A stretch of DNA of 64,000 nucleotides from Bispira polyomma (Eukaryota): positions 38,998,001 to 39,062,000 of the forward strand of contig OZ287756.1 in the NCBI GenBank assembly GCA_965649765.1. The letters are read 5' to 3'. Each line of letters begins with the position of its first letter. The stretch's first letter is position 1. The notes beneath the pieces are model-generated. The model was not told where the DNA came from and did no database searches. It saw only the letters and a list, made by a program, of their open reading frames with translations. The position numbers and the translations under genes are program-made. Positions 2,621-55,600 of this stretch are shown one piece after another.

Positions 2621-4033
2621 AATATACAAGCATTCAGTGACGACTGAATGGTCATATATCTCTCGGCTAAAGTCTTTTATTATCACTCAGTAATATATAA
2701 TATTTTGATGAATTTCCGAACATTGTTTTCAAAAGCTGTCCCAGCACTGGTAGTAAACGTAGTATAACCGTCTTATAATTTTGCCCACTAAAACTTGGCT
2801 GATTAATTTATAAAAAAATTACCTCACAAATGCTACCTCTTCAGAGATAAAAGCTGGCATCTCATCATACACAATTTTATTAAATGTTTAGTGTAGAATC
2901 TTTTTTTATTTTGATGACTTCATTGTCTGTATTATTGTTGAGGGGCAAGGTTGGTTAGTATGAAGCGATTTTCTTGGTTACTGTGTCAGCGATTCTGAGA
3001 CTGACTAACCACACACACAACTGTGACGTTTCACAGCATCTTAACAAAAAAAATTGTGTAGATAGAAAAGCACATGGATGGATCAATTTTGAAAGCAATA
3101 AAAGGGATTTATATCAATCGCCGTATTAGGAAAAATGTAATTAAATGTTGATATTTTAGAAAATGTTGTTGTGTTTGTATGACAAGATCGATTCTGCAAT
3201 TAAACAAAATTAAATATATTAAATGGATGTATATGCAACTTCATAAAGGGAGAACTTCAACTATCACATCCAGGCCTGTGAGTATTATAAATACTGTGAA
3301 AAATTGTGATTAAAGTTAATGAGTATGGTATTCCATTGAATACTTCCAAGTGCCTGAACTGAACTAAGAGTCAACAACCGAACTCCCAAATTTGGTGGTT
3401 AATAAATAACTGTGCTACTACTTTGTATTACTTTACAGCTAGCAACTAATTTATGGTCTATATATCCAAATATTAAATGTGATTGCATGGTTTATTTTTC
3501 AAAGCATTATTCAATATTAAGACAAGAAGGCTGTGTGACAGCTAGCTGTCACGTACCTTGCATGTCTGCATGGTAAGCATTTCCACAAACTGTGTCACAT
3601 ATCTCAAGATGCTAGAGAACAAACCAATACAAAAAAAATAAATATAACATCTTGGCTTAAAACTATAGCTAGCTATTTTTTTTCCTTGTATAAACAAACA
3701 AATTATCCGAACAACTCTTTCAATAATTTGTTTTTTTGCTTTAAAACTTTAAAAATGATTTCATTTGTTTGCTATAATATAATATTTTGAGGCTAAACTG
3801 CAGGGACCTTATTCACCTTTGGACTTTGCATACTCCTTACTTGAAAAAAATATGTGAGTTTGTCTTACATTCAGTATCCATTCAGAGACTAAAGTCAAAT
3901 TTCAATGTCCTGACAAATTTTCAAATTCTAAATTTTTTCCCAGATATTCGAACTTTGTTTAGTCTATAGTGTTGTTAAATAAATGCTTGGTGAAGTTTGA
4001 AAAAGCTATTATATTCCTAACTTGAAAAAATAG

Positions 4034-5216
4034 TGTAGCAATGTAGCGTATGGCATTATCGGCGATATAGCAATAATTTGTTAAAGTATTAATTTGATTT
4101 CGTATGGGTTTTATATTGTTGTAAAATTGTCATTAATGGTTGTTACATACCTTTAGAAAGTTATATTATATGTACATAGCCGGTATGTGAAGGTTTTTAA
4201 ATCACCATGCTTTGTATATTTTATGTCAAGTAAAGAAAGTTACTTGGTCAAGATTTGGGACACAACTAAAGTTAACCAATGGGGAGCCTTGTTCCAAGTT
4301 TACAGGTACAGGGTTGGAGTTGTTCTGATGTGTCTGGTGTTTGCCTATATAAAGGGGGTGGAAACCTTCACTCTGGTCTGAATTGGTAATAGGGACACAA
4401 GAATGGCAGGGTAAGACCTGACTTCTTTTTATTTTTTCGCTACCAGGGTAAAATCTGTAGATTTATTAAAATGTTTATTTAAGTTTTATACTTTATATTT
4501 TCAGGGTAAAACCTGTAAATATTGAAATGACTGGGTCATTATTTATTTTCATTGATAATGTGATTTTCTATTGTAGGAATTGTTTGCCACCTGGGGGAAT
4601 TATGTGTTAGATATACTAATGTGATGTTGTAATATTTGTAGTTAAAATATAGCTTTGTCATAGATATTCCGTTACTGTAAGGGTAAAACCTTATAGTTAT
4701 ATACAGTTTCTTGTTGGTACTAGGAACTAGCCTAACAGAGAAGATTTAAACTGAGGTGATGTGCTGCAAGGGTGAAACCTATGCAGTCCTTTATGTTTTC
4801 TGACTATACTTAGTTTAACTAATTTATTATTTCCATCATTTCATATTATTTCTCTGTAGGTGTTGACTATATGGTGATTTGATGGGGTAAATCCTGTCCA
4901 TGTTGCATGAGGTACTGAACCTGTTCTAAGCAGAAGATGACACTAGAGGGAAAACAGGCAGTAGGTGTCCTACATGTGATACGTGTACTTTTATTACTTT
5001 CAGGTGATCTTGTAACTTATTATTTCAATATCACTGGTATTTATTTATCTGTAATGTTTTGACTTTTTACAATATTATATCTGTGTACCAATTCAGCCCC
5101 AGCCTTGCTGGTAAAACTTGTATAATTTGTAAAGAAATGATGTTTGTTGTTTAACTTTCAGTTTATAAGTCCTGGCTTCCCTATAGGTTTATCTACTATA
5201 CTCTTGGCACGCTACA
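4034..5216 (+). mobile_element. Solo LTR (Gypsy-like, 1183 bp)
   Basis: Termini TGTAGC...GCTACA (TG..CA with inverted repeat). 4-bp TSD ATAG at 4030-4033 and 5217-5220. TATA-like TATATAAA at 4346-4353. No internal coding region. Confidence 0.8.
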
Positions 5217-5914
5217 ATAGGTTAGTTTGTCCTCCACCCAGTGTCCATTCAGAAAGTAAGGCCTAATTTTAAAGTCCTGTCAACCTATAAGTTACAAAAA
5301 AGCCTCCACAAATAGAATTGTAAACCACTTATGCAATGACATTCTTGCTTCTCGGTAGGGTTGAACATTACTCACAAAATTCCCAAAATTGAAATATATT
5401 TAGATGATAGTAGTCTTTCACAGGCGTTAGATGGCATTGAAATTGCTGATTCACAACATACCAGGACAAGGACATTCTTTAGTAAAATGTATTAGATCGA
5501 CAATTCTCCTACACTTACCCCAAACTATTCAACACAAAACCAAATAACAACCTTGGATGTGTTTCATGATCATTTACACATTTCCTCAATAGTGTTCTTT
5601 TTAATCCTTACTCGTAAAATTACACTTGAGATTACCTTAAATAAACATATGTCGAGTTTGCTCTTACAATTCATTACAGCGTCTGTATTTTTTTTCTCAG
5701 TGACTAGTTTTTTTAAACAGTTACGAATCGAAAATTAACCACTCTATCTAAAATTTGCCACCCCTAAAATTTAAGCTACATCAATAAAACCTGGCCAAAA
5801 AATAACGGGTAAGAAAGGCAAACTAGCCATTAAAATTTTCATTTGAGCAAATAGACTGAAATTCTGTTTTCCCAGGTAAGCCTGCTGAAGGACAACAATA
5901 AAGGATGATGTGGA

Positions 5915-6361
5915 GGCTGACAAAGGTTTACAGCTTCGTATGTACGTGGATCACTACTTACTACTAGGTGTAGCTACTGTACTGCTACTTACTGGTGCGT
6001 TCTGCTGCTTAGTAAAACAAATACAACGAGTGGGGACAATCTCACTACTTACTGGGAATTCCTCGCTACCTACTACTACATATAGCTACTTTCTGATACG
6101 TCTATGCTACTTTCGGAAACGTTCGGGGACGAACCGAGAAACGGGGAGAAACGGAAGCTGTGGCTGTAGCGTTTCAAACAGTTTGAAGCACTAAACAAAA
6201 AAGACAAAACGGAGACGTTTTGGGAACGATTTTATCCGTCTGAAAACGTAAAGAAACAATCACAGAAGGGATCCTCATTTCCTACTACGTTGCAAACCGT
6301 TTCTTAAATTCACACAACGTGACACAAACGTAGCTCTAGAACATGTAGGTGTGACCAGGAC
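5915..6361 (+). mobile_element. Non-autonomous Harbinger-type element, family A, copy 1 (partial)
   Basis: Aligns by eye with 10620-11210 and 32080-32578 (tactgtactgctacttactggtgcgttctg, ctcactacttactggga). Ends in catgtaggtgtgaccagg followed shortly by TAA. Confidence 0.65.
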
Positions 6362-10619: not shown

Positions 10620-11210
10620 AGCAATATACACCGAAAACGTGGTAGTTTCGTGTCAAAGTGACGTCATTTCCATAAAAGGGTAGTCGATTGTGACATTTTG
10701 TGACGTTTTTTGACAATGCTGGTACTTATACACACGGAACGGGGGCAAAAATCAAACACTTTATTGGTAGGATATCACTATCTTCTACAACATAGATCTA
10801 CTATACTGCTACTTACTGGTGCGTTCTGTTGCCTTTTGCTACTTAGTGAAACGATTCTCGACTGACAGAGACGATCTCACTACTTACTGGGACTTCCTTG
10901 CTACCTACTACTATGTAGAGGTACTTACTGATATGTCTATGCTACTTGCAGAAACGTTTCGGGACGAACAGAAAAACATGGAGAAACGTAAGCTGTGACA
11001 CAATAGTTTCATCAAACAATTTGAAAAAACGTTGCAGCAGACGAAGCAGAAACATTTCTGGAACGATATCATCCGTTAACCAACGTCACGGAACGAACGC
11101 ACCAGGAATCCTCACTTTTGCATTACCTTCTACTACGTTTATACTAGGTTTCAAAACAATTCAAAACGTCACATACACATGACTCCAGCATGTGAAGGTG
11201 TGACCAGGCT
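10620..11210 (+). mobile_element. Non-autonomous Harbinger-type element, family A, copy 2
   Basis: Collinear with 32080-32578 (gtcatttccataaa, gtcgattgtgac, tacttactggga). Ends gtgtgaccaggct followed by TTAA. Confidence 0.7.
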
Positions 11211-20468: not shown

Positions 20469-22868
20469 TCATATATATTGGTTTATGCCAATAGGGTGAA
20501 TGGAAGGGACATTCCAGATGTATTTTAATTCCTTTCTTCTGCGAATGGATGTGTTATCAGGAATGTTTGGATTTCCCAACCATTCTATTACACTGAATTC
20601 CATATCATTATGGGTATGGTTTTTCTGGGTAAAATGTTTGGCAACTGGGGTACTGTTGTTTTCTCTTGGTTTCTGAACACTATGTTTGTGTTCATATATT
20701 CTTGACCTAAAGGCCCTACTAGTTTCTCCAATATACTGTAATCCACATTTTCTACAATTTATGAGATAGATAATGTTGGAGATTTCACAAGTGTAATGGT
20801 TTTTGCGTGGGATATTTACACATTTATGTGTAACTCCAGTGTGGTGGCTTATAAACGTATTAATTTTATGGAGTAAAGGACAATAGGTACATTTGCCTAA
20901 TCTGGTACAGATTTTTGGTCTGTCCTCAGATTGTTTAGTATCAAGTGGGGGATACTGTACAGTTGAGGGTGATAACAAGTCTCTAAGGTTGTGCAATCTT
21001 TTAAATCCCAAGATTGGTGTTTCAGGAAATAAATGACTGAGATCTGTGGTATTTTGGATTATATTCCAATTATTTTTAATGAATTTCCTGATGTGTGGGT
21101 TTTGAGGGTGATAAGTAGTCACCATGACTGGTGATGTGGTCTTGTTGGGGGAACTATCTTTTATGATTAGTTCATTCTGTGTAAATTTGCTGGCTTTTTG
21201 ATAGTGTTGTTTGAGGTATTTATACTGATATCCTCTATCTAGATAGTATTTTGTGAGTTTATGAGCATGCAGATGGAAGTCCTCATCCTTGGTACAAATT
21301 CTTCTTAGGCGAAGGTATTGTCCATAAGGGCCCTTTTTCATGACACTTTGTGGGTGTGCTGATGAATGGTGTAGGTATAAGTGTGTGTCTGTTGGTTTGT
21401 TGTATAGGGTTGTATACAATAGTCGATATTCATCAATTTTGACAGTGGTGTCCAGAAAATTGATGTTGGTCTCACTATACTCATGGGTGAATTTAATGGT
21501 GGGGTGGATGTTATAGAGGTATTTTATGAATTGCATAAGTGCATCCACACCATGAGTCCAGATCAGGAATATGTCATCTATAAACCTTTTCCATATTAGA
21601 GGTTGTAGATGATAATTATTTAATGCTTTAGTTTCAAATTTATCCATGAATAAATTAGCATAATTTGGTGCTAAGGAAGTGCCCATGGCAGTACCTCCTA
21701 TTTGGAGGTAGTGATCACCATTAAATTCAAAATACATATTATGTAGAACTAATTTTAGTAAGTCTAAAATATAATTGGATATAGATTGTTTAAGTGGATC
21801 CTTTCTTAAGTGATCAGCTACAGCAAGTATCCCTTCCTGATTGGGGATATTTGTATAGAGAGATGACACATCAAGTGTCACGAGAAGAGACCCAAGTGGG
21901 GCTCTGTCTACTTCCTTCAGTTTCTGGATGAAGTGTTGAGTGTCTCTAAGGTAAGACTGAGTTTTTGGGACATAGTCTTTGATGTGGGCATCAACAAATT
22001 TACTAATGTTGGTGGTTGGGTGGTTAACAGCACCACAAATAGGTCTACCAGGGATACCTTTTTTGTGTATTTTTGGTAGTAAGTAAAAACTGGCTTCTTT
22101 ACAATTCATGGGTTTAAGGAACTCAAGATTTTTGTCTGTAATGAGTCCTTTAGATTTCATTTCAATGAGGGTTTTGGTGATTCTCTCAGAAACTGCTGTT
22201 GTGGGATCATGATCTAGTTTGGTATAAAAATTGGGGTCAGATAACTGTCTGAAGCCCTCCCTTAGGTAATCAGTAGTGTTCATGACTACTACTGCACTGC
22301 CTTTGTCAGCTTTTTTAATGACTATATCAGGATTTTGTTGAAGTTGTTCAAGGCCAGATATCTGGTCCTTTGTGAGGTTAGGTTTAGGTTTGTGTCCTAT
22401 TTTAGAATTTATGAGATTGTTTCTAAATGCCAATTTGAAGACATTTAAAGAGATGTGTGTATTGGTGGGTTTCCAAGTGCTTTTTGGTTTGAAATTTTTA
22501 TGAATGTCCTTGTAAGGGTTTTCTTGATCATCTAAGTTTTTTGCTAGGAATTGTACAAGAATTTGGTCATTCTTGTCCAAGAGTTGGTTATCATTGTAAA
22601 AGTGATGTTTAAGGACCAGTCGTCTGTGGAAGTCCTTAAAATCTAGCCATATTTGTGATTTGTCTGGCTTGTTTGGAGTTGGGCAGAAGGTGAGTCCTTT
22701 CTCCAAAGTCTCAATTTGTGGGTGAGTTAGTACAGTATCAGAAATGTTAACAACATTATGACCAATGAGGCTTTCCATGGTGTGTCCTTTGGGTAATATC
22801 CCAGGAGTGGAATGCATGGCATCCTCTTTTAAGGCCTTCAAAAGGTCCAATCTAATAGTGTTAGCCAT
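20469..22868 (-). CDS. Penelope-like element (Neptune type) ORF2: reverse transcriptase, Cys linker and C-terminal GIY-YIG endonuclease; 799 aa from the first ATG, uninterrupted
   Basis: LEKGLTFCP, IVIKKADKGSAVVVM, FYLLPKIHK, LVTLDVSSLYTNIP, GTAMG, RFIDDIF and YNKPTD. Linker CTRLGKCTYC (Neptune-type). Endonuclease NIIYLINCRKCGLQYIGET..RIYEH..VAKHF..GIN. The ORF-track start at 22991 is TTG. Confidence 0.93.
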   Translation of the reverse strand: MANTIRLDLLKALKEDAMHSTPGILPKGHTMESLIGHNVVNISDTVLTHPQIETLEKGLTFCPTPNKPDKSQIWLDFKDFHRRLVLKHHFYNDNQLLDKNDQILVQFLAKNLDDQENPYKDIHKNFKPKSTWKPTNTHISLNVFKLAFRNNLINSKIGHKPKPNLTKDQISGLEQLQQNPDIVIKKADKGSAVVVMNTTDYLREGFRQLSDPNFYTKLDHDPTTAVSERITKTLIEMKSKGLITDKNLEFLKPMNCKEASFYLLPKIHKKGIPGRPICGAVNHPTTNISKFVDAHIKDYVPKTQSYLRDTQHFIQKLKEVDRAPLGSLLVTLDVSSLYTNIPNQEGILAVADHLRKDPLKQSISNYILDLLKLVLHNMYFEFNGDHYLQIGGTAMGTSLAPNYANLFMDKFETKALNNYHLQPLIWKRFIDDIFLIWTHGVDALMQFIKYLYNIHPTIKFTHEYSETNINFLDTTVKIDEYRLLYTTLYNKPTDTHLYLHHSSAHPQSVMKKGPYGQYLRLRRICTKDEDFHLHAHKLTKYYLDRGYQYKYLKQHYQKASKFTQNELIIKDSSPNKTTSPVMVTTYHPQNPHIRKFIKNNWNIIQNTTDLSHLFPETPILGFKRLHNLRDLLSPSTVQYPPLDTKQSEDRPKICTRLGKCTYCPLLHKINTFISHHTGVTHKCVNIPRKNHYTCEISNIIYLINCRKCGLQYIGETSRAFRSRIYEHKHSVQKPRENNSTPVAKHFTQKNHTHNDMEFSVIEWLGNPNIPDNTSIRRRKELKYIWNVPSIHPIGINQYI

Positions 22869-23036
22869 AATACTGATGTGGGTTACAATGGCTGGAGTGC
22901 TTAAAGTAGTAAAAGTAGCCCCTGTGAACTGCACCCAAAAGAAATCAGGAGAGAGAGAGTGTGAATGATATTTATTGAATATTGAGCACAAAGCATATCA
23001 ATTATAATAGATTGTATGATAGTAAATAAAACAGAG

Positions 23037-23825
23037 TTACTTGAGGCCTATTATGAGGCTCATGAGGGCCTCTTTGAGTTGATTCTGGCCCTTGTTTCTG
23101 GGTTGATTCTGGTTGGGTTTATTAGATTGTCGATATGGTCTTTTTGGTCCTTGCCTATTGTTGTAAGCACGGGGTATATTGTTGCCTTTTTTGGCTGGTC
23201 TGGAAAAGGCATTGGATGCAGCAGATTTATATTTCTGGCCTAGGAAGGTAGTGATCTCTTTATACTGGTCACCACTGAGGAGTTGCTGTAATAATGTCAG
23301 TTGACTCTGGATCTCTTGTTTGGTTTCTCTGTACCTATTGTTGAGGTCCTCAATAATGATTAGGCTCAGTTGTTTCTTGCAAGTGTTAATGGTACTATCC
23401 CATCTTGTTTCAAAGCTTTTATCTCTGGAAGATGGGGTTCTGCATCTGAAGTCTGCCTGTTGAGGAAACTTATTATTTTCTAAAAGTTTCTTAAATTGGT
23501 GTAGATTGGTAGCTATTGCCAATTTCTTTCTATGAAGAGTCTTAGTTTTTAAATAGATGGTTTTGGTGGCATCTGGATATTCTGATCGTGTGTGGTCTGT
23601 TGGTGAGTCAGACCGTTTTCTTTTATTACTGGGTATTGGTTTTGGTGATCTTTGTCTAGGTTTGTCTAAACTAGAAGCTGCCTGATTTAGTAGTTGGAGT
23701 GTTTCATCACTGAGATTACTTTTGGGAAAAGGTGTCCCTGCTCCAGGTGTAATATAGGTGGCTGATTCTACACCTAAGGTGCCAATGGCTGAAATCAAGG
23801 TTTCTTGTGATACACTAGTAGACAT
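23037..23825 (-). CDS. Penelope-like element ORF1 (262 aa): N-terminal helical domain and basic N/Q/R-rich tail
   Basis: Intact ATG-to-TAA ORF, same strand and frame as ORF2, directly upstream of it. Segment KFPQQADFRCRTP...FETRWDSTINTCKKQLSLIII resembles the P..L....P....F...W..IL..CS..L..LI pattern recalled from Neptune-type N-termini. Confidence 0.75.
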   Translation of the reverse strand: MSTSVSQETLISAIGTLGVESATYITPGAGTPFPKSNLSDETLQLLNQAASSLDKPRQRSPKPIPSNKRKRSDSPTDHTRSEYPDATKTIYLKTKTLHRKKLAIATNLHQFKKLLENNKFPQQADFRCRTPSSRDKSFETRWDSTINTCKKQLSLIIIEDLNNRYRETKQEIQSQLTLLQQLLSGDQYKEITTFLGQKYKSAASNAFSRPAKKGNNIPRAYNNRQGPKRPYRQSNKPNQNQPRNKGQNQLKEALMSLIIGLK

Positions 23826-23992
23826 GGTATGTCCAGAGGTAATAAAGCATAAAAGGGTTTATGTCTTGTGTATGAACAAGTAGACTAAATAATATATGTA
23901 GCCTAAGGCTAAGGTTATTTCCACTTTTACACTGAGCTTAAACTCTGTCCTCCATTCAGTATACATATGTCTGGTTTGAGAATTTCTCATTA

Positions 23993-32079: not shown

Positions 32080-32578
32080 CTACACGTGGTGGCGTCCCCT
32101 AACGTAGCAAGGCCATATAAACTGAAAATGTGGTAGTTTCTTGCAAAGTTACGTCATTTCCATAAAGGGAGAGTCGATTGTGACCTTTTGTGACGTTTTT
32201 ATGACGATGTTGGTACTTGTACACACGAAGCGGGGGGGGGGGGGGGGGGGGGACGGGCCCTTTACTGGTAGGATAGCATTACCTACTACTACGTGGATCT
32301 ACTGTACTGCTACTTACTGTTGCGTTCTGCTGCGTTATGAAGCTTAGTGAAACGTTTCACGACGAATACAACGAGTGGAGATAATACCACTACTTACTGG
32401 GACTCGCAGTTTGAAACAATCGTGGCAGCAGACCAAACAAAGACGTTTCCAGAACAATATCATCTGTTAAGCAACGTTCCATAACGGACGCACCACAGAT
32501 GCTCACTTTGTCATTACCTTCTACAACGTTTATACTAGCTTTCAAAACGTGACACACATGTATAGGTGTGACTGGGCT
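32080..32578 (+). mobile_element. Non-autonomous Harbinger-type element, family A, copy 3, with an expanded poly-G tract
   Basis: Collinear with 10620-11210. Ends catgtataggtgtgactgggct followed shortly by TAA. Confidence 0.7.
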
Positions 32579-51011: not shown

Positions 51012-51017
51012 TTAACT

Positions 51018-51425
51018 GAAGAAGTGCAGAAAAGTGGAGGTCACCTGCAAAAAATAGAAGTGCAGGAAAGTGGAGGTCACCTGCAAAAAAAAGAAGTGCA
51101 GGAAAGTGGAGGTCACCTGCATAAAAAGAAATTGAAGGCATGTGGAGGTCACCTGCAAGGAGTACAGGAAAGTGGAGGTCACCTGCAAAAAAATGGAACG
51201 CATGTGGAGGTCACATACAAGAAAGGCTACAAAGAGAGTAGGAATCACCTTGCAAAAAAGAAGTGGAGGAATGTAGAGGTCCCCAACAAGAGAGGAGTAG
51301 AGGGATGTGGAGGTCACCCACAATGAAGGCATGGAGGAAAGTGGAGGTCACACACAAGAAATGGTATAAAGAGAGTAGAGGTCACCCACAAAAAGGAGTG
51401 GAGGAATGTACAGGTCACGCACAGT
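51018..51425. repeat. Minisatellite, ~30-40-bp units with a gtggaggtcacctgc core, about 11 copies
   Basis: Repeated (g)aaagtggaggtcacctgcaaaaaa; units become more diverged to the right. Confidence 0.9.
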
Positions 51426-52639: not shown

Positions 52640-55600
52640 CTTAAATTATATGTGGGTTGGATAAAAGCCAAGTCATGATAAAAGTCCAAAGTGAAATTAT
52701 GCAGTATACATACTCATAGACAAATGAAAAGACAATTATAACAGCATTGTGATTTTATTTTAATATACCTCTATATGATTAGTTGTGTTAACTGTACAAC
52801 CACACTACTAATTATTAATTTATGTTAATAAAATTTATTTTATTTACAAAGTCCCAAGCCCAACCTAGGAAGTAATAATATATTGTTGAAAAGCTTTGGG
52901 TACAACGGCAGCAGCCATTGGTGTAGTCTGTAGATATTGCCACACACCGTCACTTTGCCACCCCAATGAGTTTTAATGTTTTGTATTTGTACATTGTGAT
53001 TAAATACAAAAGAAGATATTTGTATTATCTGTACTTGTGAAGCACCTTGCATTGCCTTATGCCACTTCAATATCAAATGGGCCCATGGTGCAGCAAACAA
53101 AACATCAACCACAGTAAAATGACGTGTATTATGAAATGCATACATAGAATTGGGGACCATATTAGAGAGACAAAAGAAGCCATAAAAGGCCACAAGGAAG
53201 ATAGCTCTGTATACTGCTCCATTTTCAATACTGTCACATGCTTTTGAAATATTTAAAATATTCTGCACAGAGAAAATCCCTTTCAATTTTGGAGTGTAAG
53301 GAGCGTTATTGGCCACTGATTTGATAAATAGATCAATCTTTCTGTGCCTCAAGTGGTACAAAGGTAAACTGTATAGTTGTGCATAGTGTTTTAGCACTGA
53401 AATATAATTATTTAAGGAAGGTGCACGAGTGCCTTGTGCCACCAGATATTCCAAAAACAACTATTGAATCAACCTCATGTATGGAAACCCCAAAGTGCAA
53501 TGAAAATGCCAAAAATAATGAAAATTTGCCTTGATACGCCGCGTCAGTGGCAGGTCTAAGTCCAGTATGAACCCTATCAAATGCTTTGTCCAAAAGGCTA
53601 TTTACCAGGGGTTGACTTACAAATATAAAGGTTTTGTCAGATCTCAAAATCTGGTTGAAACAGGTGATCCCCCACGGGCCACCATACATGTGAAATCAAT
53701 TCTTCCACTACATTATTATTTACTTTTGGTGAGAACCATCTTGAAAGACAATCTGCATATTTGTTGTTCACCCCATATATATGTTCATAATGTACTGATA
53801 TGTCATATTTAGAAGTTATAGCCCAAATGGTTCTAGCGCATGCTAAAATGTAAGGGTCATGGATTTTACTGTTGACCAAAGAGTGGACCACTGCAATGTT
53901 GTCACACCAGATTTTAACAGCCGTGTGCTGCTATAATTCATCCCAAACAGAAAGTGCAATAACAATGTTGATAATTTCAAGGTGAACTATGGTTAAGCCT
54001 TGTGCTTTGGTTAAAGGATATGCAGCCGCATAAACATTCTTATTCCAAATAGCCCCCACACCAGAAAGAGATGCATCGACATATACTTCTACCTGTGGCT
54101 TGATATGATTGAACACCACTTTCCCTTTAAAATCGGCTAGAAAGGTGTTAAACCACTTCAAGTCCTTGAAAAAACTCGTGCTGGGTGAACACATTTATGT
54201 ACATAGATTAATCTACCAATCAAGCTTTGCAATTGCCTGCGTGTAGCTTGCTTTGTTGAACTCCATATCTTACATTCAAGTTTAATTTCTTGTAACTTTT
54301 GTGGAGGTATAGATATAATGCCTGTTAGTACATTAATATTGATGCCCATACATACCAGTTCGTGAGAGGGTGGATCAAGTTCGTCTGGATTCAGTAGAAG
54401 ACCTAAATAAGCAAACAAAGCTCTGAGAGTGTGCGTCACATGACGTCTGGACGCCTATGACGTCGTCGATGTAGTTGCAAATGTTGTAGCCGTGTGACAT
54501 CATTGCGTCGCGCACAATGTCTGTCACATGCTGGCAAAGAGCACTTCCGGTTCTAAGGCCAAACACCACACTTAAATCAATATATGTTTTATTTCTGTGA
54601 GATATACCCATGACATCATAGTCTTTGGGATTATTCCGGAGATTATGAAATGCCCTACTGACATCAGTCTTATATAACAATGTAGTACTGCCAATGGTGG
54701 CAATTTTCTGAACAATGTCTTCTACTGTGGGGTATTTAAGTATATACTCTTGATTGTCATATATGTCATTTGGAATGGCCTCATTTACAGAACGTGTCTT
54801 TGGCCGACTAAGGTCCACTATTTTTCGCCTCGAGGCATTAGGTTTTGGTCTTGATAGCAATGGAGACAAGTGTAATTTATCTATACATTTGTTGTCACAT
54901 GGACCCACCATGGATTTATGTCTGAGTTCTTTATCTAGATAAATATCTATGTCTTTTGGGAACATTTTTGCTGATGAATGATTCTCCAAATGTGTATTAT
55001 AAACAAAGGTGTTTTTGTTTATGTCTAGAGGGGACCCGAATTTCACTAAAATGCACAAACATCCAGCCAAGGTGACCTTTCATGATTGTTTTCCAATTAT
55101 TTATATTCAAGTCTGAGGGTACCTAAATCCTAGCTCCAATATAATTTGGAATACCTGTGTGAACAACTTGTATATGTACTATGGCTAACCAGTCTAAGAT
55201 ATTTTCTGCAGTAACAATAGATCCTTTTGATTCACCAAGTACACGTGGTATGGGTTGTGAAGTAAACCCCACCTGTTTTTGTTATAAGTGCTTTCTGTCA
55301 CTGTACTGAAATATATTGGGGTCAAGTACACCTTGAACATGTTTCATGTTATTACAAGTGCTGGAGCACGTGAAAGTGCATTGTGTATTAGGACAAGGCC
55401 TAGTATGATGTATGTCATGATGTGCTTGAGAGCAGATTGGTTTGTCTGCATGTTTCTGTACCAGACACACGTGGCTATCATGAGTGATTTCTGTGGCAGA
55501 TATGTCTCACCCAGAAAATTCCTTTGCCCCACATGTGAGCGAAAAGTGAGTAAACCTTGTTCACCCATGGAGGTGTCCCCGTCTGAAAGAGAGGAATTGG

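Follow-up and report, generated by a model that had tools for sequence, protein, structure and literature searches.

In the HIV-1 packaging signal psi, the splice-donor hairpin SL2 and SL3 are bound by a nucleocapsid (NC) with two knuckles. The hairpin array described here resembles psi in its short 5' hairpins, which would be read by CCHC knuckles, and in the placement of a likely splice donor within a hairpin loop. It differs in extent and in its candidate reader: psi is one compact 5' cluster of unlike hairpins read by two-knuckle NC, whereas here 9-16 copies of a single motif extend from R to the end of pol, and the Gag carries three knuckles. MS2 and HBV provide examples of dispersed packaging signals. 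These and the signals of STNV-1, as presented in the accessible text of PMC6475782, share with the array many short, degenerate stem-loops with a common loop that are spread through coding sequence; they come, however, from RNA viruses or a pararetrovirus and owe their definition to work in vitro, whereas the present hairpins are defined by evolutionary covariation in an LTR retrotransposon.

According to the available part of PMC10309623, the Gypsy-type element Cer1 of C. elegans with its protein CERV and the HIV Rev-RRE system have in common with the elements studied here an accessory protein from a spliced mRNA (predicted in the present case) and the need for export of unspliced RNA. CERV is a large protein that contains G and M domains plus a Cys loop, and no RNA target of it is named in that part; ORF3 of the present elements is a double C2H2 protein of 200-330 aa and also occurs without hairpins. 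The HIV-1 A-rich loop (PDB 1BVJ; PMC1694020, accessible part) has the identical GUAAAA hexaloop, whose fold is U-turn-like, as is predicted here; it is a single site thought to mimic an anticodon loop, whereas the array has many sites and loop position 3 is free. RNA of the LTR retrotransposons Ty1 and Ty3 is recognised by Gag, as is proposed here, but in the available account of PMC4974528 their packaging regions are terminal, without a repeated motif and with Gag sites that are not precisely defined, and Ty3 NC has one knuckle. How Gag singles out its own RNA has not been settled even in Ty1 and Ty3, and most support for dispersed signals comes from experiments in vitro.

In openly accessible papers, as distinct from subscription journals and repeat databases such as Repbase and GyDB, no description was found of the motif, of a Gypsy Gag with three knuckles, or of a C2H2 ORF that follows pol and is expressed by splicing. 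The accessory ORFs of the MDG1 group are, in the accessible portion of PMC11952523, proteins different from ORF3. A search of Rfam 15 gave no gathering-score match for the LTR (best E 1.6, all far below gathering) and 0 matches for four elements.

The solo LTR and its six hairpins

The window is the whole stretch of DNA that was analysed, 64,000 nucleotides of the genome of Bispira polyomma (GenBank assembly GCA_965649765.1, contig OZ287756.1, positions 38,998,001 to 39,062,000 of the forward strand). It holds a solo LTR of Gypsy family A, in which an initial annotation had described six RNA hairpins; the family letters A-F are labels coined in this analysis. The features of the LTR are as follows, with positions counted from the first letter of the window and closing-pair probabilities taken from the fold in context.

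4030..4033, plus strand: left target-site duplication ATAG, from the sequence
4034..5216, plus strand: solo LTR of Gypsy family A, 1183 bp, TGTAGC...GCTACA, from copy matches and duplications
4346..4353, plus strand: TATA box TATATAAA, from the sequence, present in most copies, putative in function
4399..4427, plus strand: H1, loop GUAAGA (4411-4416), closing pair G4410-C4417, closing-pair probability 0.99
4403..4416, plus strand: first ATG after the TATA box and likely phase-2 donor of the ORF3 mRNA, ATG GCA GG/GTAAGA (slash, putative splice junction), the donor being the H1 loop
4444..4457, plus strand: H2, loop GUAAAA, closing pair mutated to G.U in the window copy, probability 0.0
4502..4515, plus strand: H3, loop GUAAAA, probability 0.94
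4674..4697, plus strand: H4, stem of 9 pairs with loop GUAAAA, most copies having two G.U pairs, probability 1.0
4763..4787, plus strand: H5, bulged, loop GUGAAA (GUAAAA in 7/20 copies), probability 0.37
4881..4898, plus strand: H6, loop GUAAAU here (GUAAAA in 16/20 copies), probability 0.03
5111..5118, plus strand: seventh G-GTAAAA-C core, stemless (U.U beside the closing pair), same context in family E
5132..5137, plus strand: position of the poly(A) signal, AAGAAA here and followed by a GT-rich stretch, putative in function
5217..5220, plus strand: right target-site duplication ATAG, from the sequence

The LTR has the TG...CA ends, the short inverted repeat and a target duplication within the 4-6 bp range of Gypsy LTRs; 4-bp duplications are also present at five other copies (L003-L006 and L014). 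At least 63 matches of the window LTR were found in its own genome (40 of 57 candidates scored). Copies L049 and L051, which are one duplicated insertion, continue into a PBS-like sequence and then into decayed Gypsy gag-pol, in agreement with the earlier assignment to Gypsy; the primer site of these elements is presumably of the tRNA-Leu type. A polypurine tract lies upstream of the LTR in copy L023, and both L023 and L007 are preceded by remnants of ORF3. The PBS after the LTR (L049) and the polypurine tract before it (L023) are as expected of a Gypsy element. Gag followed by pol in the order protease-RT-RNase H-integrase was found in the relatives C-F and is decayed in family A. The window LTR is a relic that retains the R-region part of the hairpin array. 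Family B, to which a first PBS search led, has in common with the LTR only its last 14 bases. A different Gypsy element, with integrase before RT, is inserted in opposite orientation in the family A pol of L049 (351-5161), and the same integrase-before-RT type adjoins copy L012 (L062).

The six motifs and their stems were all located at the positions first reported for them, and each hairpin folds in isolation as described (H5 with a shortened loop). When the whole LTR is folded, H1, H3 and H4 are strongly predicted, H5 is partial, and H2 and H6 are not formed in this decayed copy. The stems exceed chance: 4 of the 6 cores have four or more contiguous pairs, whereas 300 dinucleotide shuffles of the LTR contained 0.06 such cores on average and never more than 1. 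The remaining 62.8 kb of the window contains 1 such hairpin per strand. The sequence AATAAA stands at 5132-5137 in 12 of 16 family A copies and, together with the TATA box at 4346, would delimit an R region of about 780 nt holding all six hairpins, consistent with the long R region proposed earlier.

In an alignment of 20 family A copies, nearly all read G-GTAAAA-C at H2, H3, H4 and H6, GTAAGA at H1, and GTGAAA or GTAAAA at H5. Two of the variants from which the hairpins had been described, TCTG of H2 and GTAAAT of H6, proved private to the window copy, and the closing pair of H2 is G-C in 17 of the 20 copies. The covariation that the initial annotation had read from the six stems exists between sites and between families; among the 20 copies of the window's own family no compensatory change was found, and the hairpins are conserved there without double changes. 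The two subfamilies of family A differ at 2 of 119 columns in cores and stems but at 60 of 648 columns in the rest of R (Fisher p 0.003); six H5 outer-pair rows in this count were indexed one base off and are void, which barely affects it. Tandem duplication, earlier dismissed as an origin of the array, does contribute to it: H2 and H3 have the core and the 3' flank in common, copy L008 carries a fresh duplication of this core-flank unit, and in families D and F the hairpin is multiplied in tandem repeats of 28-39 nt.

Several plus-strand pyrimidine tracts ending in AG are present in R between 4430 and 5010 of the window (before H2 and H3, and near 4577, 4860 and 5004), and H2 and H3 read AG-G-GT; these may represent further small introns or decoy sites. 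A degenerate core with a 7-nt loop lies right behind the TATA box in family A (4354-4369) and is canonical in family C (L063, oriented 853); RNA would contain this core only at the 3' LTR.

Covariation and strand of the stems

Every G-GTNRAR-C core was included in the core set, with one copy per family and without a stem filter, and 82 cores were collapsed to 71. Pair 2, which lies beside the closing G-C, is Watson-Crick in 64 of the 71 cores (G-C 36, A-U 17, U-A 11; permutation mean 27.4). The corresponding numbers of Watson-Crick plus G.U pairs are 55+7 at pair 3, 41+16 at pair 4 and 47+8 at pair 5. Paired cells amount to 80.1%, compared with 54.3% in shuffled sets (0/500) and 25-51% with slid partners, and the covariation score of the 71 cores is 0.667 versus 0.21. 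RNAalifold, given no structure, predicts these five pairs as well. In the 46 cores that have the loop and three outer pairs, the closing pair is G-C 42 times. Compensatory covariation lies above the shuffled and the slid controls, as is expected of a conserved RNA structure motif, and the hairpin is strongly supported as an RNA structure motif under selection. The GUNRAA pattern, which includes GUAAAA, holds also in a list of cores not constrained by the loop; by analogy with the GUAAAA of PDB 1BVJ, the loop may form a U-turn hexaloop.

The 71 cores include orthologous sites and tandem copies and are not independent of each other, so the cleanest evidence comes from three orthologous gag/pol sites. 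Both stem partners are swapped there at third codon positions, with the amino acids unchanged, as follows.

Site after knuckle 1: TCT GGT AAA ACA (families C, D, F) versus TCG GGT AAA ACC (E)
Site before RT: AGA GGT AAA ACT (A, E; GGT CAA in C) versus AGG GGT AAA ACC (D)
RNase H-integrase linker site: GAG GGT AAA ACC (C, D, F) versus GAA GGT AAA ACT (E)

The linker site is broken in the single internal copy of family A. Cores were found in all three reading phases and are therefore not a by-product of a conserved peptide.

At pairs 3-5, G.U pairs number 31 and A.C pairs 3 (p 0.0006 against the permutation ratio). This excess favours RNA of the sense strand despite the G+T skew of that strand, and extends to the core set of the families the plus-strand preference first proposed from the six window hairpins. 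It also bears on a role at the DNA level, as a kappaB/Dorsal-like double-stranded site (GGGTAAAACC), as a hairpin of single-stranded cDNA in reverse transcription, or as a by-product of template switching at quasi-palindromes. The commonest form of the hairpin in the LTR resembles the Dorsal consensus, perfect stems fold on both strands, and one core adjoins the TATA box. A double-stranded site, however, needs no complementary covarying flanks, and many cores are flanked by AAG/CTT, CTG/CAG or ATG/CAT; the sense strand favours G.U and avoids A.C; and a mutational process would not fix the loop together with its closing pair. A DNA-level role is thus very improbable, and is largely refuted by the covariation and fold results.

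Distribution of the array among Gypsy families

The six window hairpins are copies of one motif, stem-G[GUNRAA]C-stem, which occurs in five related Gypsy families (A, C, D, E and F) and is lacking in family B. It is located in the LTR (R), the leader, gag, pol, and the spacer between pol and the zinc-finger ORF3. The sequence CAGGGTAARACCTG occurs 142 times in the genome, 100 of these places being listed, compared with 9 occurrences of the reversed control. Around matches outside family A, 49 stretches were fetched, 23 of which are LTR family C and 13 family D; families E and F were reached via searches with the extra ORF of C and D. The number of hairpins per element is 14 in C, 16 in D, 9 in E and 16 in F, against shuffle means of 0.48-0.65 (0/300 shuffles reach the observed numbers) and 0-1 on the antisense strand of these elements. 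This layout, in which short stem-loops sharing one loop recur throughout the element, is the one looked for in dispersed packaging signals. The sole internal copy of family A has at least 4 pairs at 2 of its 4 cores.

With one copy each of C, D, E and F, tandem copies included, 57 hairpins were counted in the 24.9 kb from the 5' R to the ORF3 acceptor and 1 in the 5.8 kb from the acceptor to the 3' R, where about 11 would be expected. The initial annotation had regarded the hairpins as a module of the LTR, a view that does not hold, since the same hairpin is spread over the entire element, coding sequence included. TAR/boxB-like 5' control, which it had also considered, fares no better: the hairpins are not confined to the 5' end of the transcript, and an array throughout the element argues against such control and for recognition of the whole RNA. 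The suggestion of a multivalent protein-binding RNA module is retained as the likely role.

Both copies of family B tested had 0 hairpins, and no second hairpin motif was found in this family by loop counting, local folding or k-mer enrichment. In the family B element L046 the words TTTTAG, CAACCA and CATCC are over-represented (TTTTAG 21 versus 6.9 expected), with no consistent hairpin context. Families A, C, D, E and F are close together in the RT and RNase H trees. In the RT tree, which lacks A, family B branches outside the others (93/96), while the RNase H tree leaves it unplaced; its exclusion from the clade by the trees is not firm.

Twenty further Gypsy stretches of the same genome were picked from 150 matches by long open frames (33-43% identity, several of the same family). 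They contained 0 hairpins in 16 cases, 1 in 3 and 2 in 1, the count covering the central 7 kb in 5 of the 20, and no alternative repeated loop word was found in any of them. Among 11 metagenome loci (31-45% identity), 9 had 0 hairpins and 2 had 1, with no ORF3 match in the DNA examined; as these loci lie outside the clade, they serve as a control and not as a test of range. Viral contigs and phages gave no matches.

In the family C element L063 some 10 nt separate the end of the 5' LTR match from the gag frame and no primer site can be recognised; the N-terminus of gag has four RVKP/GVKP repeats that are hairpins. Five near-identical family E-like copies (L161-L165, contig C11), four of them about 16.7 kb apart, suggest a large tandem segmental array.

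Gag knuckles, ORF3 and host factors as candidate readers

We give an even chance to the reading that the hairpins are dispersed RNA recognition signals, probably read by the three-knuckle Gag nucleocapsid for packaging. Gag has three CCHC knuckles in families C, D, E and F, and one intact and two decayed knuckles in family A. Outside these families, one knuckle was found in family B and in 18 of the 20 other Gypsy stretches, and none was found in the other 2. According to the available text of PMC2577118, Gypsy lineages usually have 0-2 CCHC knuckles, and CCHC arrays act in RNA packaging. Three knuckles were also present in 7 of 41 Gag homologues from other assemblies, 4 of the 7 with GKT just after knuckle 1, and three other Gag homologues contain xVKP like the hairpin repeats in family C gag; at the protein level, these are hints that the clade and the motif may extend beyond this animal. 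Hairpins and extra knuckles are confined to one clade, so their co-occurrence counts as a single evolutionary event and is only a lead.

In packaging, the three-knuckle nucleocapsid would select and condense full-length genomic RNA, with many Gag molecules binding many loops (avidity). Unspliced RNA would be favoured in packaging, since its hairpins outnumber those of the spliced ORF3 mRNA several-fold. In families A, C and E, where the likely ORF3 donor is inside the loop of the first hairpin, Gag bound at that loop would in addition raise the share of unspliced over spliced RNA. The enrichment, the covariation, the sense bias, the spread through coding sequence, the near absence from the ORF3 exon and the co-occurrence with three knuckles all speak for a packaging role. 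Against it, the spliced mRNA would keep the 3' R hairpins; one family C core is right behind the TATA box, a position that probably precedes the start site; a diverged ORF3 is likewise common to the clade; and only 3 of the 6 window hairpins are strongly predicted in context. The cis signals of Ty1 and Ty3 are near the ends, with most internal sequence dispensable (PMC4974528, available part), and the dispersed packaging signals proposed for STNV-1 had no discernible in vivo role according to the accessible part of PMC6475782. A more specific version, which we hold tentatively and would lean against, is that Gag and RNA evolved to match each other: Gag would have gained two extra knuckles, and the RNA a tag that recurs 10-20 times per genome and is kept even by synonymous codon choice, with one tag on the ORF3 donor so that the level of Gag would switch the RNA from splicing to packaging. 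If true, LTR retrotransposons would have a first example of a packaging code that is defined by sequence and spans the whole genome.

The second candidate reader is ORF3. An ORF after pol that starts with two C2H2-type fingers occurs in all six families A-F. Its AlphaFold model is confident at residues 11-70, where two C2H2 fingers are predicted with pLDDT above 90. The structural matches are weak and consist of ordinary or DNA-binding C2H2 pairs (best Z 4.7, rmsd 1.9, 51 aligned), and Foldseek against viral models gave no E below 0.1. The PDB sequence search returned generic C2H2 fingers only, and the ESM Atlas generic C2H2 clusters only, with low recognition. A word search found no homologue; a profile search found homologues with the same acceptor-like residues in nine other assemblies.

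A pyrimidine-AG lies just upstream of the fingers at codon phase 2 in 28 of 29 readable ORF3 loci (36 given; other families), the family A acceptor copy being too decayed for phase reading. After the first post-TATA ATG, GT[AG] at phase 2 is present in 12/12 copies of C, 7/7 of D, 8/8 of F and 8/8 of B, and in 8/13 of A (old copies) and 2/5 of E. In A, C and E this candidate donor coincides with the first hairpin's loop, and in families A and C only the donor hairpin has G at +5. Three sequencing runs, which behave as genomic contigs, contain no joint between donor and acceptor and carry no information on expression. As the phase of the donor matches that of the acceptor and the donor is inside the first-hairpin loop, H1 likely doubles as start codon and ORF3 splice donor, judging from the sequence.

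The hairpins could be a response element for ORF3 as the product of the spliced mRNA, comparable to Rev or CERV: ORF3 would coat RNA that retains the intron, keep the donor of its own mRNA in H1 from being used and favour export of the unspliced form. This we consider possible but unlikely. All five hairpin families have ORF3 or remnants of it, and the start codon and donor in R match the phase-2 acceptor, yet family B, whose splice layout is the same, has 0 hairpins. In 13 of the 20 outside stretches, too, pol is followed by a C2H2 ORF without the array, so that accessory protein and hairpins do not go together and ORF3, unlike Gag, is not a marker of the hairpin families; nor was an alternative repeated hairpin found in family B or the 20 outside stretches. 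The hairpins are concentrated next to the donor and the acceptor and are nearly missing from the ORF3 exon, as confinement to intron-containing RNA would require (57 versus 1), but R hairpins are also at the 3' end of the spliced RNA. The two modelled fingers also speak for this reading, and the helix of the first finger is neutral to acidic in the hairpin families (net charge 0 to -2), unlike the basic, DNA-binding-like helices of the outside families (+2 to +5), so its ligand may have changed. Acidic helices, however, bind nucleic acids poorly, and the best structural matches are DNA-binding fingers (Z 4.7 or less). CERV itself is a precedent for such a protein, within the accessible text of PMC10309623.

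A C2H2 ORF in the place of env is common in the Gypsy elements of this genome (L046 6016-6765, L063 2127-2846, L065 7123-8100, L213-L231). The C-terminal half of ORF3 has a conserved acidic-hydrophobic motif, W..EP..GF..L in A and C-F or VE.IL.ELLP.GCLSPLP in the B type, with a terminal DPR, and could be an activation, export or interaction motif.

The loops might also recruit a host export or stability factor, or U1 snRNP through the donor-like G/GURA, and so guard the long AU-rich RNA from premature cleavage. Most cores read G/GTAA, H1 is likely a real donor, and many pyrimidine-tract-AG sites are present in R. Apart from H1, however, the loops have A at +5, and C stands at +3 in 7 of the 71, both unfavourable in the consensus for pairing with U1; positions -1 to -3 are buried in the stem. 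Any Gypsy family could moreover make use of a host factor, yet the array is limited to one clade, and we regard this reading as quite improbable. It has precedents in the direct binding of NXF1 by retroviral RNA structure (compare the CTE), described in the available part of PMC10309623, and in the SPRE as a motif-type element (PMC8579622, accessible part).

For the packaging reading and for a response to ORF3 alike, evolution offers a defined 8-nt core with free covarying stems, together with natural negative controls in family B and the other Gypsy families. The two candidate readers, the three-knuckle NC and the ORF3 fingers, are small expressible domains. A packaging code or a Rev-like export element would either way be new for this group. 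Small and with free stems, such a hairpin-protein pair could also find use in RNA tagging, as MS2 and boxB do.

Elsewhere in the window, a Penelope-like RT plus GIY-YIG frame of 842 aa lies at 20469-23858 (minus strand) and a second RT fragment at 54375-55079 (minus strand). An unclassified repeat rich in CTACT words is present in three copies (5952-6176, 10759-11011 and 32260-32402), and positions 51016-51423 contain an array of 30-36 nt units with the core GTGGAGGTCACC.
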